Source: Candidatus Fraserbacteria bacterium | GTDB taxonomy: Bacteria > Bipolaricaulota > Bipolaricaulia > RBG-16-55-9 > DRXL01 | NCBI GenBank assembly: GCA_947085185.1 | Contig: CAMTVK010000007.1 | Coordinates: 76,191 to 140,190 of the forward strand | DNA length: 64,000 bases | Reading direction: 5' to 3' | Shown: one piece after another, positions 48,001-54,000 of the stretch | How the letters are laid out: each line of letters starts with the position of its first letter | Position numbering within the stretch: the stretch's first letter is position 1 | Program-made: the position numbers

Positions 48001-51000
48001 GAAGAGTCCATAGAGTCTCGGGAGTCGGACTCTATGGACTCTCTTGACTCTCCTCAGGGACCGCCGTGACGTCGAGGAAGGACAGCCGGCCTTGCACCCC
48101 GCTCCCTAAACACCCTACAATGTGCCACAGCTTATGAGCGGAAAAATACGGCGCGTCATGATCGGCCTCGGCTGGCTCGGCCTCGCCTTGCTCAGCTTGC
48201 TCTCTTCTGATAAGAATATTCACGCCCAACAGGCCCTCGCCGAAGTCAGCGTCGAGAGCAAAACTCTCGCGCCTAACTCCACCGGCTCCGTCACTATTAG
48301 CATCAGCGAAGGCCCCAACGCCGGCGTCGCCGACATCCAAGGGACCCTGCGGTTCGATCCCAGAGTCCTCAAAGCGACTAAAGTCGAGGGCCAGCAGGAC
48401 TACGAGGTCTTCGCTTCTAAGCTCGATAACAACGCCGGCGAAGCGAAGTTCGTCGTCACCAAGCTGCGCGCCCCCTACGCGAAAGCCGGCCCACTTATCA
48501 AGATCGAATTCCAAGCGATCGGCAGATCGGGCGATAGATCAGATCTTCGGCTCACTTTAGATAAGCTGGGCGATCCCACCGATCGCACTATACCCCATAA
48601 GATCATCAACGGGCTGATCACGCTGGGAATGGTGCAGAATCAGCCGCCCACTGCGAATTTTAGTTTCACCCCCGCCGCGCCCAAGGTGGACGAAGAGATC
48701 TCGTTCAAGGACGAATCTACTGATCCTGACGGCCCAACAGACATCGTCAGTTGGGAGTGGGACTTCGGCGATGGCACCACGAGCACCGAACAGAACCCCA
48801 AGAAGAAATACGCTCAGAAGAAAGTCTACGACGTCAAGCTCACGGTGAAGGACAGAGCGGGGCTGCCCAGCTTTGTGGTGAAGAAAGTTCCGGTGGGCAT
48901 CGTGCCGCCCAAAGCTGATTTTGTGTTCAGCCCCACAAGCCCCGAAGTCGGCGACGAGGTTCAGTTTACGGATAAGTCTACCGACGACGGCAAGATCGTT
49001 GGGTGGCGCTGGGACTTTGGTGACGGCACCACGAGCACTGAACAAAACCCCAAGAAGAAATACGCTCAGGCGGGAACTTTTAAAGTCAAGCTCACCGCGC
49101 GGGATAACGATGGCGCCGAGAGCACCGTTGAGAAGAGCATCACTGTGAAGGCTTCAAGTAGGCCGATCATCGGGGTCTTTCCCAATCCGGCGCGCGACAG
49201 TGCGACGTTTGTGTTCACCTTGCCGCCTGGGGCGACCGGCGGGACGTTGCTTGTCTTCAATATCGCTGGGAGGGTCGTGCTGCGCAAGGAGAAGCTGACG
49301 GGAACCCAATTTGTGTGGGACATCAAGAGGGACGATGTGCCCAGCGGCCCCTATTACTATCTCATGATCGCGTTCAAGGAGAACTCTGTGATAGGCCGCT
49401 CGCGCATTGAGAAACTCATCATTCAGCGTTAGGGAGGAGCCGATGCGCCGTGCGTTTTGGCTGCTAGGACTGACTCTTATAGGGCTTGGGGGTGTGGGGC
49501 AGGCCCGCCCGCTCGTCACGGTCTTCGATATTGGCGCGGGGGTGCGCCCGGTGAGCTTGGGCGAGGCGTTCACGGGCCTGGCCGACGACGAATACGCGCT
49601 CTTCTATAACCCCGCAGGATTAGCTCTGCTCACCGGCGGTCGGGCGAGTCTCTTATATCAGTCGCACTTTGGCGCGTCCACGTATCTCAGCGCATTGGGG
49701 AGTTTTGGGAATATCGGGGGCGGACTGATATTCTTTGATTTTGGTCAAGTGCCCTGTCTGACGGCGCAGAACCAGCCCTGTAAAGACGCTCAAGGCAAGA
49801 CGATTAGCTCGTTCGGGTATTCGAGCTTCGCTCTGGCGGTCGGCTGGGGCGCTCCAATGCGCTCGTTGCCGTTCTTGAGCAATCTTCCCCAAGGGTTGGC
49901 GCTGGGGCTGAGAGTAAAATTCGTCTCGATCACGAGTTTCGATCCCGTCAAGTTTCAGTCTTTAGGGATCAGCGGGTTTGTGTTTGACCCGTCGTTGTTG
50001 TGGGAGCTCGGGGCGTTTGGGCCGGTTGAGGCCGTTCGTGTGGGCGTGGTCTTAGAGAATTTGCTCGGTTTGGCGTTTGGCGCTTCAGCAGAAGAGAATT
50101 TCCCGATGGGGCTGCGCCTGGGGGCCTCGGCACGCGCGCTCGATTTGGTCACGGTGAGCGCGGATCTTTCACTGAATGACGGGTTTCATCTGGGAGCTGA
50201 ATATACTCTGACGAAGCTAGGCCCTCTGGAGAGCTTGAGCATTCGTGCGGGGATGCTCACTCGGACGGGGCTGGGAGTGAGCGTGGGGCTGGGGGTCGTC
50301 TTCGGCACGCTGCAGATAGATTACGCGTTTCTCTTTCATCCCGATTTTGAGGGCTCGCACTGGCTCTCCGCGTCGTTTCGCTTCTAGTGCGCGGACGTGA
50401 TCTCCATCACTTCCCCAATGCTTGAGATTCAGTACAATAGATGTGTTCTTATTCGGGCCTGTGTGGCCCGCTGATGAGGAGGTCTCATGAAGCGCACAGA
50501 GCGATGGGCGATCTTCGTCGTCTTGCTGGGGTGGAGCACGATGGCGTTCGCGCAGGAAGCCGCGGTGCTCACGGTGGAGAGCGTGACCGTGCCCCCAGCG
50601 GCCAAGACGACCATATCCGTCACGGTAGCACACGTCCCTGCGCCGGGCATCGCCAGCATCCAAGGACGATTCTCATACGATCCGAAAGTGCTCAAAGTCA
50701 CCGATGTGGCATTTCCGCAGATTGTGGGTGCCAACGTCACGGTCTTTAATAATACTCCGGAGTCCGGTCTGGTCCGATTTGCCGCGACGCTTGCCGGCGC
50801 AGACATCGCAGGGATCACCGAGGGGACGCTCTTAGAGTTTTCCGTAGAAGCCGTGGGCAAAAACGGCGACAAGAGCACGCTCACCCTCACCGTCGAAGTC
50901 CTGAGCGATGTCGGGTACAACGCCGTGCCGTATCAGATTATTAATGGGACTTTCGAGATCAAAGAAGTCGTCAATCAGCCACCGGTTGCGGACTTTGAGT

Positions 51001-54000
51001 TTGCTCCGGCGCAGCCGGCTGCGGGGCAGACCGTCAAGTTTACCGACAGATCCAAAGACCCCGACGGCCAAGTGAAGTCTTGGCAGTGGGACTTCGGCGA
51101 CGGCACCACAAGCACCGAACAGAATCCGTCGCACGTCTATCGCACTGCGGGGACGTTTACAGTAAAGCTCATCGTGACCGACGACAAGGGCGCGCCAAGC
51201 CCGCCCACCGAAAAGAAGATCACCGTGGGGCCGCCGGCGCAGATTGCTGTCACGATCACAAACTTCCCCAATCCCGCGAAAGATCGCACAAAGTTCGTCT
51301 ACGGCTGGACGCTGCCTGCGCCCGCCCGCCAAGCGACCTTGAGAATCTTCACCATCAAGGGCGAATTGGCCTTCACCAAAGACTTAGATACGAACAAGAC
51401 GGAGTTCATCTACGATCTGAAAGATAGTGTCGGTCGGCCCTTGCCCAACGGGCCGTACTTCTATGTGCTCTCTGTGACGGCGCAGGACAACAGTATCGTG
51501 CGCTCGGCAATCGGCGTCTTGGCCGTCCAACGATAAAGGGGGCTGCAATGAGAGAGTTCCAAGTTCGAAGTTTCAAAGTTTGGGTGAGCCAGGGCTTAGT
51601 CTTTATAGCTCTGCTGGTTGCGATGACAAGCGTTGGGTCAGTTTTTGGGCAGACGCTGCTGTCGCTCTATGAGCTCGAGCGTGGGGCGCGCCCGGCGGCC
51701 CTGGGCGGCGCGTTCACCGGGCTCGCCGATGACGCCTATGCGCTCGTCTATAACCCGGCAGCGTTGGCGTTCTTAGAGCGAGCCAGCGCGCACGCGCTGA
51801 TCGAATCTCGCTTCGGAAGAGCTGTGTACGGTTCGGTCGTCGCCGGAGGACGCCATCTTGGGGTGGGCTTGGTCTTCTTGAATGTCTCGAATATTCCCTG
51901 GCGCGATGAGAATAACAAGCCCGTGCAAGGGGGCACGTTCGATTTCAGTCAATTGGGGCTCACCGTTGCTGGGGGGATCTCTTTGGCGGATCTCCCTTTG
52001 GGAGCGGGCTTGGGGGCTCTGCAGAATTTCGCTGTTGGGCTTCGGGCCAAGATCATAACTGTGAGCACATTGCCTGAGGGCAGCGGTGCGGGGTTCTCGC
52101 TCGAGCCGGCGCTCTTCTATAAGCTCAATAATGTAGGGAGCCTAGGGGGATTGCGCATCGGCGTTGTCATTGAGAATCTTGTGGGTTTGGGAGTGAGCTA
52201 TGGCAGTGGGCATAGCGAAAATTTCCCCATTGGGCTGCGTTTGGGAGCCTCGCTCAGCCCGGTGCCCGGGGCGATCCTGAGTGCTGATGTCGAAGCCAAC
52301 GGCACGGTGCACCTTGGGGGAGAATATAAGCTCTCTAACGCACAATTTGTTCGATTCGGCTTGCTCCAGCTTGCAGTGCGCGGTGGGGTGCTCGTGAGCC
52401 CATCGTTAGTACAAGCGAGCGTGGGGTTTGGCACGAGAATACGCGGTGGCCTGCAGCTCGATTACACGGCGCTGACGCACTCGGAATTGCCGATGACGCA
52501 TCGCGTGGAAGTTGCGTTTCGCTTTGGGTTTCAGAGTTTTCTCTGTCTGATACTGGGGCGATCGTGTCCGGCTCCCGAGGAAGAAGTGATACTTCCTCCC
52601 ACGGAGGAGCCGCAGCCTCCTGATGATCCTCCTGGTGACTCTCCGGAGTGCCCCGGCGATGACCCGAACGTAGACTGCGAAAACGATCCGTTCTGGCCGT
52701 AGGGTGATGCTCCTTAATTTTAGAGATAGTCTTCCAAGAGCAAGATTGCGAGCCCCTCTTTGCGGTGAGCTCGCTTCAGCTCTGCATCGTTGGTGAGAAA
52801 AGCTTTGGCCTTCTCTACTACAGCCGTGCTCAGCAAGAGCGCATCAGGAGTGCGCAGCCCGTAGTAGGCCCGCAAGCGGGCGGCCTCCCGAGCAATCGCG
52901 CTATGGGGAGCAACGATGGTCGTGTGAGGCAGCCCTTGGAGAAAGCGCTCGCAGGCCGTAATAGCTGTTTCATTGCCCTCAACAAAGGGCTTGACCAGAA
53001 GCTCTGTTATGGAAATTGTGGAGATCACCGCTGTGAACGTGCCTTTGGCCAGCAGGGAGAAGACCGTCTCTGTTAGGCTGGCATAGGGGGCAAGGCCCTC
53101 CAAATGATAGATCAAGACGGAGCTATCGAGCCCGACCTTCCCTGCGCGAGCTAAGTCGGCTGCTAGGCCTTTGCTTTGTCCCATGTAGCTCGCTCTCTCC
53201 GGAGGTAACGTTCGAGCTCTTCTGGGGTCTGTCCCCACGTCCCTCGGAGCATCCCGCGCGTGAGAGCGGCATAGCGTTCCGGCGTAGTAAGTACGGCTTG
53301 GCCATCGTGAAGGACAATCAGCACGGAATCACCCTCTTCGAGCTTAAGGGCCTCTCGAACCTCCTTAGGCAAGACCATCTGACCCTTCCTGCCAAGTCTG
53401 ACTATCTTGGTTAGAGTCATACTATGATACCTCGGTCTGATTATAGTGAAGATAGTCCGGTGATTGCAAGGAGATAGGGAACAAATCTCGTGGCACAGGG
53501 GCCGCAGAGCCCGCTTGCACGGCCCAGACGGACAGAGTAACATAACTCTTAAGGGTGATCGCGCATGGCGACCCAGGCCCAGATGAAGTTCACTTACGAA
53601 GACTATAAAAGCTTGCCCTATGTGGAGCGCCAACGGTATGAGCTTCTCGAAGGAGAGCTGATCCCCATGACGCCATCGCCAGGAGAGGCCCATCAAGCGG
53701 TCTCTATTGCCCTATCGTCGGCATTGTACAGATTCGTTCGGGAGCAGCGTCTTGGCCGTGTCTACGAAGCCCCGTTCGACGTGGTGCTAGGGGAGAGGGG
53801 CGAAGAGCAAGTCGTCCAGCCCGATATTCTCTTCATCGCTCAAGAGCGACGGGATATCATTCACGAGGAGGAGATTCGCGGCGCGCCTGATCTTGTCATA
53901 GAAATTCTCTCCCCGGCGACAGCCGAAAAGGACCGAGTCTTCAAGCGTCGGCTCTATGCTAAGTATGGAGTGAAAGAGTACTGGATCGTAGATCCCCATG

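Follow-up and report, generated by a model that had tools for sequence, protein, structure and literature searches.

The four genes at positions 48134-52702 of the window, the 64,000-nucleotide stretch of DNA from an uncultured bacterium that we analysed, are best explained as two tandem paralogous cargo-carrier modules, A1-B1 and A2-B2, of a reduced outer-membrane system for type-IX-like secretion and attachment in Bipolaricaulota, a reading to which we assign a probability of roughly 0.55. All four open reading frames (ORFs) lie on the + strand where the survey's finding had placed them, and they form two abutting pairs, with gaps of 10 nt between A1 and B1 and 11 nt between A2 and B2, the pairs being separated by 99 nt between B1 and A2. 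From its ORF and domain profile searches, A1 (48134-49432, +) was recognised as a secreted protein of 432 aa with a cohesin domain, two PKD domains and a C-terminal sorting-type domain (CTD), the last spanning residues 348-432 (49175-49429, +, from profile searches) and ending in ...EKLIIQR. B1 (49443-50387, +) is a PorV/PorQ-family outer-membrane barrel by its similarity to NF033709 and counts 314 aa from its ATG, while its ORF opens at a TTG at 49407; its C-terminal end reads ...SASFRF. A2 (50487-51536, +), identified in the same way as A1, is a secreted cohesin-PKD-CTD protein of 349 aa, with the CTD at residues 260-349 (51264-51533, +, from profile searches) and ending in ...GVLAVQR. B2 (51548-52702, +) is again a PorV/PorQ-family barrel by similarity to NF033709, of 384 aa, and carries past its last barrel strand a C-terminal tail rich in Cys, Pro and acidic residues, with four Cys (52538-52699, +). 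All 18 B2 orthologues inspected retain this tail, which is long in the closest relatives and of a short C-x(5-10)-C type in the others. Signal-peptide-like N-termini could be read from all four sequences, and each half of the module has its counterpart, A1 and A2 being paralogues at 38-45% identity and B1 and B2 sharing 37% identity.

Searching Pfam, we found cohesin (PF00963, cut-off 24.1 bits) at 33.2 bits in A1 (residues 37-150) and 41.4 bits in A2, together with PKD_4 at 126.6 and 85.5 bits, respectively. The A1 tail scored 21 bits against Por_Secre_tail (PF18962), below the cut-off of 27, and 22.1 bits as part of the whole protein or 24.8 bits as an isolated tail against TIGR04183, for which the cut-off is 23 bits. 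The A2 tail exceeded the cut-off of 27 for FlgD_ig with 27.9 bits and stayed below 23 bits against TIGR04183, both within the whole protein (18.1 bits) and in isolation (12.9 bits). Upon seeding an HMM with only the A1 and A2 tails and iterating it on a freshly called ORF set of the genome, we reached convergence with a family of 14 members (E 5e-29 to 1.5e-16), 12 of which, including A1 and A2, carry the domain at the C-terminus. The 14-protein family described by the survey was reproduced in this way from an independent seed, and its TIGR04183 matches above 23 bits on g01127, g01129 and g01479 recurred at 24.0, 23.8 and 30.6 bits; as isolated tails, 7 of this genome's 12 CTDs match that model at E≤0.01. 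The best PDB matches of the CTD profile were the CTDs of PorU (1.9e-4) and PorZ (3.9e-4) and a CTD from a SprA complex (1.7e-3). PorU and PorZ are type IX secretion system (T9SS) components described as resting on PorV and PorQ, and their CTDs are retained rather than cleaved. Judged by its sequence, the CTD of this genome is T9SS type-A-like. Of the 12 aligned tails, 10, among them that of A1, have a Lys near the C-terminus that is reported to be nearly invariant in type A CTDs (PMC10994853). The Lys is missing from A2 and from the S8 subtilase; in A2 its place is taken by a Val, which A2-type orthologues across the order retain, the difference between A1-type and A2-type tails being maintained across orthologues.

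The same CTD recurs upstream in the window. An FG-GAP/PKD protein (32041-34458, +), with no adjoining barrel, shows a weak dockerin match of 21.4 bits and is followed by two dockerin proteins to which the CTD HMM assigns the domain, one at 34558-36696 (+; Dockerin_1 27.6 and 31.7 bits in two scans), a possible candidate ligand of the A1 and A2 cohesins, and one at 37878-40031 (+; Dockerin_1 24 and 26.3 bits in two scans, CHU_C 24.3 bits). Genome-wide there are seven dockerin matches, of which four fall within CTD proteins.

Against NF033709 (PorV_fam, cut-off 90 bits), B1 scored 57.9 bits over model positions 6-320 of 326, and B2 scored 73.3 bits. Across the whole genome, both this model and a separately built barrel HMM returned exactly five barrel ORFs, in agreement with the survey; none of the five reaches the 90-bit cut-off, and four of them adjoin CTD genes, as had been claimed. 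The barrel family profile gave a single significant PDB match, PorV (6h3i_F, E 9.4e-8), with which it aligns collinearly (9-224 with 8-235, and 259-315 with 331-396). The sub-cut-off scores of B1 and B2, a weak Toluene_X/FadL match among the barrel domain results, and the lack of a detectable CTD neighbour at 37 of 80 barrel loci in other phyla would fit with the barrels being common uptake channels of the FadL/PorV type, or else outer-membrane proteins with a structural role, and with their adjacency to cargo genes reflecting shared regulation only. We regard this as very improbable, as 46 of 87 barrels from many phyla have a same-strand cargo gene with a CTD tail as immediate neighbour, in a search whose HMM was trained on one genome only, and as PorU and PorV, the canonical pair with this arrangement, interact physically. 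Through the order, 27 of 29 loci keep the CTD-barrel adjacency, and in other phyla a CTD gene adjoins a PorV-family barrel at 43 of the 80 loci; where a lineage possesses a complete T9SS, the pair in question is porU-porV. Along with the PDB matches, these counts support in kind the part of the survey's finding by which a CTD and its neighbouring barrel would form a functional pair. The further proposal, that such pairs possibly represent the ancestral core of the Bacteroidota T9SS, was not supported: in a FastTree phylogeny of 139 barrels, the cohesin-associated B1 and B2 barrels group together in a single clade with an SH-like support of 0.995, nested inside the diversity of the phylum's barrels, and barrels of this type were found only in genomes of the same order. 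Their appearance is accordingly that of late duplicates, not of an ancestral state.

We found that the genome does encode a half-size SprA homologue, which runs counter to the survey's statement that no SprA translocon is found. Contig C19 carries, directly after its barrel gene, a gene for an outer-membrane protein of 1374 aa (1401-codon ORF), which is the genome's only match to the SprA model TIGR04189 (E 0.046). The model's cut-off of 200 bits is reached in all 5 control genomes of one set, but by no match in any of the 184 phylum genomes. At E≤1e-3 it matches one ORF of ~1300-1700 aa in 147 of the 184 phylum genomes and in none of a set of 14 control genomes. SprA was the top NCBIfam match for 5 of 6 scanned orthologues of the C19 protein, the family profile matched the solved SprA at E 3.6e-4, and searches with the family HMM gave E-values of 1e-11 to 5e-16 for true SprAs. 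Aligning the family with four true SprAs by hhalign yielded a probability of 98.8% (E 1.4e-16, 468 columns), a result that was repeated, and a probability of 3.4% for the C-terminal 515 residues of the SprA-like protein. On these alignments, the first ~500 residues of the C19 protein are homologous to SprA, and the rest is without demonstrable likeness. At 21 of 30 phylum loci, the half-size SprA-like gene closes an operon of S8 subtilase-CTD, barrel and SprA-like protein, in which the cargo is always the S8 orthologue, while at 6 of the 30 it occurs without barrel or cargo, though upstream DNA is present.

With a SprA homologue encoded in the genome, its gene usually sharing an operon with those of a PorV-like barrel and a CTD-bearing S8 protease, the description of the CTD-barrel pair as self-contained could not be upheld. 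Such a pair would act as exporter and anchor at once, its cargo crossing via or alongside its own barrel in the manner of two-partner or autotransporter-like systems, and the abutting genes, the pairing conserved across the order and other phyla, the six loci where the SprA-like gene stands beside no barrel, and the failure to detect PorLM/PorKN machinery (with GldM and GldL models that are also silent on SprA-positive controls) would all be in line with it. We nevertheless consider it improbable, given that PorV-family barrels are small, at ~290 mature residues, that those studied are reported to be carriers and not pores (PMC10994853, PMC9143113), and that the SprA homologue of the phylum is operon-linked to a barrel of the same family. 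Moreover, 9 of the 14 CTD proteins have no adjoining barrel gene of their own and yet bear the same tail, and a shared route would therefore be needed. The best reading of the pairs in the window is that of lineage-specific cognate carrier/anchor modules, not of a self-contained exporter.

Searches for the remaining T9SS and envelope components returned few candidates. GldM had no match at E≤1 in this genome, the GldM and GldL models being of unproven sensitivity, with matches in 0 of 5 SprA-positive controls, and Pfam GldM_1st was above cut-off in 0 of 10 genomes. GldK had no match in this genome either, and controls gave only sub-cut-off matches to the C-terminal part of its model. In Flavobacterium, the PorLM-type motor (GldL/GldM) is reported to be needed to pull PorV and cargo off SprA (PMC10994853). 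Upon scoring three candidates per genome, PorU was found in 0 of 184 phylum genomes at E≤1e-15, with 5 of 6 controls above cut-off, and the sortase is therefore taken as absent. No secretin was found, with matches in six controls, and Omp85 is present. LpxC was positive in 1 of 184 phylum genomes, with matches in four LPS-bearing controls, and anchoring through A-LPS would therefore not be possible; Hao 2018 (PMC6092417) likewise reported finding no LPS genes. By gene content, Bipolaricaulota is a diderm phylum without LPS.

How the cohesin proteins are held after export is the point on which another explanation differs from ours. PorV is reported to shuttle type A cargo (PMC10994853, PMC5562754), and the S8 protease orthologue, cargo in 21 of 21 three-gene operons, occupies the gene position held by PorU beside PorV in other phyla. 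B1 and B2 could accordingly be transient PorV-like shuttles that lift the cargo off the translocon, the tail then being removed, with the S8 subtilase that carries a CTD as a possible protease, and the cohesin protein set free or retained in another way. We think this unlikely, because a shuttle common to all cargo, the C19 barrel, already exists, and a dedicated barrel for each of the two cohesin scaffolds is more in keeping with stable anchoring. Furthermore, neither LPS nor PorU is present and no other anchor is in sight, and the tails most resemble the CTDs of PorU and PorZ, which are of the retained kind.

The proposed cognate carrier/anchor modules resemble several known systems in part. 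As in SprB-SprF of F. johnsoniae and PG1035-PorP of P. gingivalis, the cargo gene adjoins the gene of its own FadL-family barrel and several paralogous carrier-cargo pairs occur per genome; in those systems, type B cargo genes adjoin their cognate carrier genes, and the SprF/PorP-like barrel is reported to be needed for secretion of the cargo and to anchor it on the surface by its CTD (PMC12618676, PMC9143113). Here, by contrast, the tail is type-A-like (TIGR04183) rather than of the type B/CHU_C model, the barrel is of the PorV/PorQ and not the PorP/SprF family, and the organism is not a member of the FCB group and has no LPS; type A CTDs in Bacteroidota are described as all being recognised by PorV (PMC12618676). 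The proposed pairing of a CTD protein with a PorV-family barrel is also that of the PorU-PorV and PorZ-PorQ attachment complex. The adjacency of the genes is that of porU and porV in Caldithrix, the locus L073 genome and a Coatesbacteria genome, whose PorU proteins score 608, 697 and 429 bits against a cut-off of 420. The cargo here, however, is a cohesin scaffold instead of a C25-type sortase or a propeller protein, PorU is missing from all 184 genomes of the phylum, and there is no A-LPS. With the F. johnsoniae SprA-PorV translocon (PDB 6H3I, 8GL6, 8GL8), the genome shares a PorV-like barrel gene adjoining a SprA-like gene and a type-A-like CTD cargo. It differs in that the SprA-like protein has 1374 aa versus about 2400, contains an inserted Reg_prop propeller and has a C-terminal half without detectable SprA similarity, in that PorL, PorM, PorK and PorU were not found (the PorL, PorM and PorK models being weak on controls), and in that the window itself holds cargo and barrels only, the SprA-like gene being on contig C19. 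Finally, an inferred scaffoldin of Ca. Stygibacter (Cloacimonadota) is likewise a cohesin protein with a T9SS-type CTD, and was proposed as anchor for a cellulosome-like assembly of dockerin proteins on the surface of the cell that makes it (PMC8542988). That case belongs to the FCB group and relies on a standard T9SS, with no private barrel described (PMC8542988), and differs from A1 and A2 in that these carry a single cohesin each.

We suggest that Sec exports each cohesin-PKD protein, as its signal peptide would indicate, and that the type-A-like CTD then takes it to the outer membrane, where the pore would most likely be the single half-size SprA-like protein of the C19 operon. The CTD would next pass to the protein's own barrel, encoded by the following gene, in a manner similar to the handling of type B cargo by cognate PorP/SprF-like carriers in Bacteroidota, and this barrel would then hold the cohesin protein on the cell surface; for covalent anchoring, both LPS and a PorU sortase are missing. 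Once on the surface, the cohesins could serve as binding sites for the CTD proteins with dockerins whose genes lie 8-16 kb upstream, and a small cohesin-dockerin assembly could form there. Overall, the paired genes appear to encode accessory modules of a pared-down type IX-like secretion system in Bipolaricaulota, a phylum in which such a system has not been described before.

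The window holds two abutting cargo-barrel pairs, A1-B1 and A2-B2, which occupy positions 48134-52702, all on the + strand, and whose four products begin with signal-peptide-like N-termini, as judged by eye from the sequences. A1 (48134-49432, 432 aa) combines a cohesin domain, two PKD domains and a C-terminal sorting-type tail (CTD), and is followed 10 nt on by B1 (49443-50387, 314 aa counted from the ATG), a barrel of the PorV/PorQ family; after a 99-nt gap come A2 (50487-51536, 349 aa), with a cohesin domain, one PKD domain and a tail, and, 11 nt past it, the second PorV/PorQ-family barrel, B2 (51548-52702, 384 aa). 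The pairs are paralogous, with 38-45% identity between A1 and A2 and 37% across 316 residues between B1 and B2 (E 3.7e-55). The cohesin domains score 33.2 bits in A1 and 41.4 bits in A2 (cut-off 24.1). The A1 tail, ~85 residues long, and the A2 tail, of the same kind, gave sub- or near-threshold matches to Por_Secre_tail, TIGR04183, FlgD_ig and the C-terminus of the PorU model, and the A1 tail alone cleared TIGR04183 (24.8 bits; cut-off 23). Against the PorV/PorQ-family model NF033709, B1 and B2 scored 57.9 and 73.3 bits, both below the cut-off of 90, with the B1 alignment spanning model positions 6-320 of 326. Upon searching all PDB chains with a profile built from 28 B1/B2 orthologues, we obtained Flavobacterium johnsoniae PorV as the sole significant match (6h3i_F, E 9.4e-8), with both halves collinear. 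A promoter scan of 47700-53300 found no promoter-like site, and the terminator-like sites were uninformative. The listed sequencing runs comprised six DNA runs and no RNA run.

B2 continues past its final barrel strand with a four-Cys tail (52538-52699, + strand, residues 331-384) that reads 'SFLC..G.SCPAPEEE', a Pro/Glu linker, and then 'CP.DDP.VDC.NDPFWP'. This tail was present in 18/18 B2 orthologues examined, long in the closest relatives and reduced elsewhere in the order to a shorter form with two Cys, 'C-x(5-10)-C'. By analogy, it may act as a periplasmic disulfide tether of the anchor to a periplasmic partner; PMC12635249 reports disulfide bonds for T9SS and gliding outer-membrane proteins of Bacteroidota.

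The surroundings of the cassette hold several further features. Immediately upstream of A1, four RTX (HemolysinCabind) repeat proteins of 288-348 aa are encoded in a row (window 43557-47960), and a further RTX protein (329 aa) lies beside the barrel locus on another contig, C14 (L008:346-1332, - strand). A near-perfect inverted repeat, gagtccatagagtctc ... gactctatggactc, at window 48000-48050 within the 170-nt gap before A1, may be a REP-like hairpin. Just downstream of B2 (window 52723-54125) lie genes for a PIN-domain protein (- strand) and a Uma2-family endonuclease, followed by MurJ and then a NAGPA-domain gene on the - strand.

Genome-wide, the inventory reported in the survey's finding was reproduced. 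A tail HMM seeded with the two window tails only and iterated on a crude set of 1775 ORFs converged on 14 CTD proteins (E 5e-29 to 1.5e-16), with the domain C-terminal in 12 and at residues ~45-115 in the remaining two. NF033709 and a separate barrel HMM both returned five barrel ORFs, of which four adjoin CTD genes (two in the window, one on C19, one on C14), and TIGR04183 passed its cut-off on the three proteins previously named (24.0, 23.8 and 30.6 bits). On C19, an S8 subtilase gene precedes the barrel; the C14 barrel is flanked by a beta-helix/DUF11 protein of 1368 aa and a protein of 1060 aa; and the fifth barrel, on C12, comes after a PKD protein without the tail. Counted from the cargo side, a barrel is encoded next to 5 of the 14 CTD proteins, and the other 9 have no private barrel.

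The best PDB matches of a profile of the 12 terminal tails were the CTDs of PorU (6za2_A 1061-1153, E 1.9e-4) and PorZ (5m11_A 696-758, E 3.9e-4), followed by the SprA-complex CTD 8glj_D (1.7e-3), FlgD (2e-3) and the RemZ CTD (0.019). Ten of the 12 tails have a Lys a few residues before the end, a position described as near-invariant in type A CTDs in sections of Lauber et al. 2024 (PMC10994853). We rejected the reading of the CTD as a mere generic FlgD-type Ig domain, since the PorU and PorZ CTDs outrank FlgD and since the domain occupies the terminus and is linked to barrels. A1-type tails have Lys or Arg ahead of the final hydrophobic run, where A2-type tails have Val across the order, a consistent difference that fits, without proving, separate recognition by B1 and B2. 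The two proteins with a CTD-like domain near the N-terminus are encoded at C19:28613-29794 (-) and C6:54043-55404 (-) (L013, L014), and one of them shows a weak Peptidase_G2 match. A 90-aa ORF at C9:28652-28924 (+) (L012:1652-1921) consists of a hydrophobic N-terminus and the CTD only, with the top E-value of the family (5e-29), and could be either a tail encoded on its own or a fragmented gene.

The claim that the genome lacks SprA did not hold, as the protein encoded directly behind the C19 barrel is homologous to SprA over its N-terminal ~500 residues. The single SprA-model match in the genome (E 0.046) falls in a 1401-codon ORF (C19:71280-75485) whose probable start at Met28 gives 1374 aa, laid out as a beta-rich N-terminal region, a Reg_prop propeller (~620-860) and a beta-rich C-terminal region ending ...LGLNF, with a terminal Phe that is near-invariant among orthologues. 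In 147 of 184 Bipolaricaulota genomes, the SprA model TIGR04189 matched one ~1300-1700-aa ORF per genome at E<=1e-3, always with model region ~584-714 and at 40.2 bits at best, none reaching the 200-bit cut-off; the model matched in 0/14 control genomes, and 5/5 FCB-type genomes used as positive control exceeded the cut-off. Of six orthologues scanned, five had SprA as their top NCBIfam match (E 1.7e-10 to 5.5e-5); the protein of this genome was the exception. A 27-row family profile matched solved SprA (6h3i/6h3j) at E 3.6e-4, profile 35-154 on SprA 135-260, through another region than the TIGR04189 match. Profile-profile comparison with four SprAs over the NCBIfam cut-off gave a probability of 98.8% (E 1.4e-16, 468 columns; 98.7% in a local repeat), aligning family positions 33-533 with SprA 232-807, and in the reverse test the family HMM found the same four SprAs at E 1e-11 to 5e-16. 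We limit the homology to the N-terminal ~500 residues because the C-terminal 515 residues gave no significant match to SprA in hhalign (probability 3.4%). ESM Atlas searches with the SprA-like protein and P0039 returned their own cluster only, without a model. The inserted propeller (L007:8361-12482, ~620-860) is similar to Reg_prop sensor propellers and shows a weaker resemblance to the PorZ propeller (PDB 5m11, E 3.3e-6; NF052228, E 1.4e-5 in an orthologue).

The order CTD protein, barrel, SprA-like gene on one strand recurs in 21 of 30 phylum loci (6/10 plus 15/20); six of the other nine have the SprA-like gene alone despite upstream DNA, and in three a contig end cuts the locus off. The CTD protein of every one of the 21 operons is orthologous to the S8 subtilase of this genome (E 1e-103 to 1e-301; one partial, 1.7e-14). 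Following the SprA-like gene in this genome are a LolCE/MacB-type permease and a LolD-type ATPase (L007:12377-14276); such genes were not seen in the other loci, which mostly stop ~0.8-0.9 kb past the SprA-like gene. A Firestonebacteria MAG (L175) encodes a 611-aa CTD protein, a PorV-family barrel and, 2.3 kb on and on the same strand, a 1697-aa SprA-like ORF, a cluster that resembles the Bipolaricaulota operon though in another phylum.

Outside the phylum, a pattern scan with one genome per species gave 399 stretches encoding barrel relatives, and the best 80 loci fell in MAGs labelled Ignavibacteriales, Nitrospirota, Elusimicrobia, Poribacteria, Firestonebacteria, Zixiibacteriota, Aegiribacteria, Coatesbacteria, Caldithrix and others. 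A tail-ending ORF abuts the barrel on the same strand in 43 of these 80 loci (46 of 87 barrels), by a tail HMM trained on our genome alone (E<=0.01). Where the CTD neighbour could be named, it was PorU, at 608 bits in Caldithrix, 697 in the L073 genome and 429 in Coatesbacteria (cut-off 420), with the PorV-family barrel after it in all three; hence, the pairing of a CTD protein with an adjacent PorV-family barrel corresponds to the canonical porU-porV gene order. PorU itself was found in 0/184 Bipolaricaulota genomes at E<=1e-15, with 5/6 controls over cut-off, in line with the survey, and the S8 subtilase occupies the porU gene position in this phylum. GldM, GldL and GldK were not detected; their models and Pfam GldM_1st gave nothing usable and also failed in SprA/PorU-positive control genomes, so that absence of the motor is unproven. 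Among five clearly SprA-bearing controls (G184-G188), PorU was over cut-off in four, and the GldM and GldL models detected none, either because the motors are very diverged or because the first-look filter loses them, which bears on any claim of a missing motor.

SprA-like proteins come in several sizes. In MAGs labelled Nitrospira, Coatesbacteria, Poribacteria and Firestonebacteria, ORFs of 2021, 2018, 2196 and 1720 aa contain several collinear SprA-model segments and match the family HMM at E 1e-19 to 1e-27. Genomes of Zixibacteria, Caldithrix, Ignavibacteriales, Gemmatimonas and Nitrospira (L170-L174) hold, besides a SprA of ~2000 aa or more, a second ORF of ~1080-1490 aa whose match to the SprA model is confined to region 600-713. 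The Bipolaricaulota family HMM found four of these five second ORFs (E 1e-7 to 1e-31; not that of L172) and matched the Nitrospira one (1155 aa) near end to end save the propeller, which was located in the neighbouring ORF; the second ORFs could be a short SprA-like family in their own right. In a search of 1.84 billion representatives, the N-terminal profile matched 2103 proteins at E<=1e-3, 632 at 1e-10 and 99 at 1e-30, with lengths among the best 150 ranging from fragments up to 1929 aa. Across many phyla, the SprA-like lengths seen were about 1100-1400, 1700, 2000 and >2200 aa.

The barrel family occurs in 176/184 phylum genomes and in 70 of 71 high-quality ones. Among the best 29 barrel loci, from genomes marked as the same genus, family or order, a cohesin-PKD-CTD gene abuts the barrel in 27, with two barrels in 24 of these 27; the other two loci hold orthologues of the C14 barrel. 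We rejected a phylum-wide cassette, since the tandem cohesin arrangement was seen only in same-genus, -family or -order genomes. In a FastTree of 139 barrels, the orthologues of B1 and B2 fall into a single clade (SH-like support 0.995) that is nested within the other barrels of the phylum, with the operon barrels paraphyletic around it and canonical PorV-like barrels in a separate clade (0.971). This nesting makes the cohesin modules look like a lineage-specific duplication rather than an ancestral state, within the limits of a single, midpoint-rooted fast tree, and speaks against the proposal that they represent an ancestral core.

The genome (1.72 Mb, 96.8% complete), whose public homologues of <=79% identity are labelled Candidatus Bipolaricaulia or Bipolaricaulota, encodes an Omp85/BamA (95.7 bits) and yielded no secretin in a search that was positive in 6 control genomes. 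LpxC was found in 1/184 phylum genomes, with 4 LPS-bearing controls positive. These results agree with sections of Hao et al. 2018 (PMC6092417), which describe no LPS genes and propose a simple Thermotoga-like diderm envelope; in the same sections, this paper on the phylum's first closed genome reports no surface adhesins and an unclear envelope.

The CTD-PorV association noted in the survey's finding is thus real and exceeds chance; what falls away is its reading as a self-contained module that works without a translocon and forms an ancestral core. By analogy with known systems, we instead suggest that each pair is a cognate carrier/anchor module, specific to this lineage, within a reduced T9SS-like system. 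In Flavobacterium, as passages of PMC10994853 describe, the CTD is bound to PorV loops inside SprA, and the PorLM motor drives the PorV-bound CTD out by lateral opening. Type B cargo, according to parts of PMC12618676 and PMC9143113, has cognate PorP/SprF-like barrels, often encoded beside the cargo, that anchor it at the surface. Like these, B1 and B2 would carry and anchor A1 and A2 as their private partners: in concert with the one SprA-like pore, they would keep the cohesin proteins attached to an outer membrane having neither LPS nor a PorU sortase. Dockerin_1 has seven matches in the genome, four of them inside CTD proteins and three of those four at window 32041-40031, which makes a cohesin-dockerin surface assembly by A1/A2 and the dockerin CTD proteins plausible. 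A scaffoldin that joins cohesin to a T9SS CTD is inferred for Cloacimonadota in part of PMC8542988. Taken as a whole, we tentatively propose, with a probability of roughly three in ten, a minimal type IX-like machine lacking the PorKLMN motor/ring, PorU and LPS, in which a half-size SprA-like pore would act with a PorV-like partner and an S8 protease as sortase stand-in, and duplicated PorV-like barrels would be permanent anchors, each gripping the uncleaved type-A-like tail of one cohesin scaffold and so allowing cohesin-dockerin assembly on an LPS-free outer membrane.

Reviews and papers place T9SS in Bacteroidota or the FCB superphylum (PMC11205867, PMC11611037, PMC5445135), and a full-text literature search, supplements apart, found no paper tying it to Bipolaricaulota or Acetothermia; as far as such a search reaches, the carrier/anchor variant in Bipolaricaulota is not in print. 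If true, this reading would mean that a deep-branching diderm phylum without LPS uses a cut-down relative of the T9SS outer-membrane core to export large surface proteins and display them, and that the 'one cargo, one carrier' pairing extends from type B tails with PorP/SprF-like barrels to type-A-like tails with PorV-like barrels. The SprA-like size series would then help to trace how the translocon was assembled or reduced and which of its parts are needed when no PorLM motor is evident. In practical terms, a likely surface proteome and an anchoring device would be named for an uncultured group.
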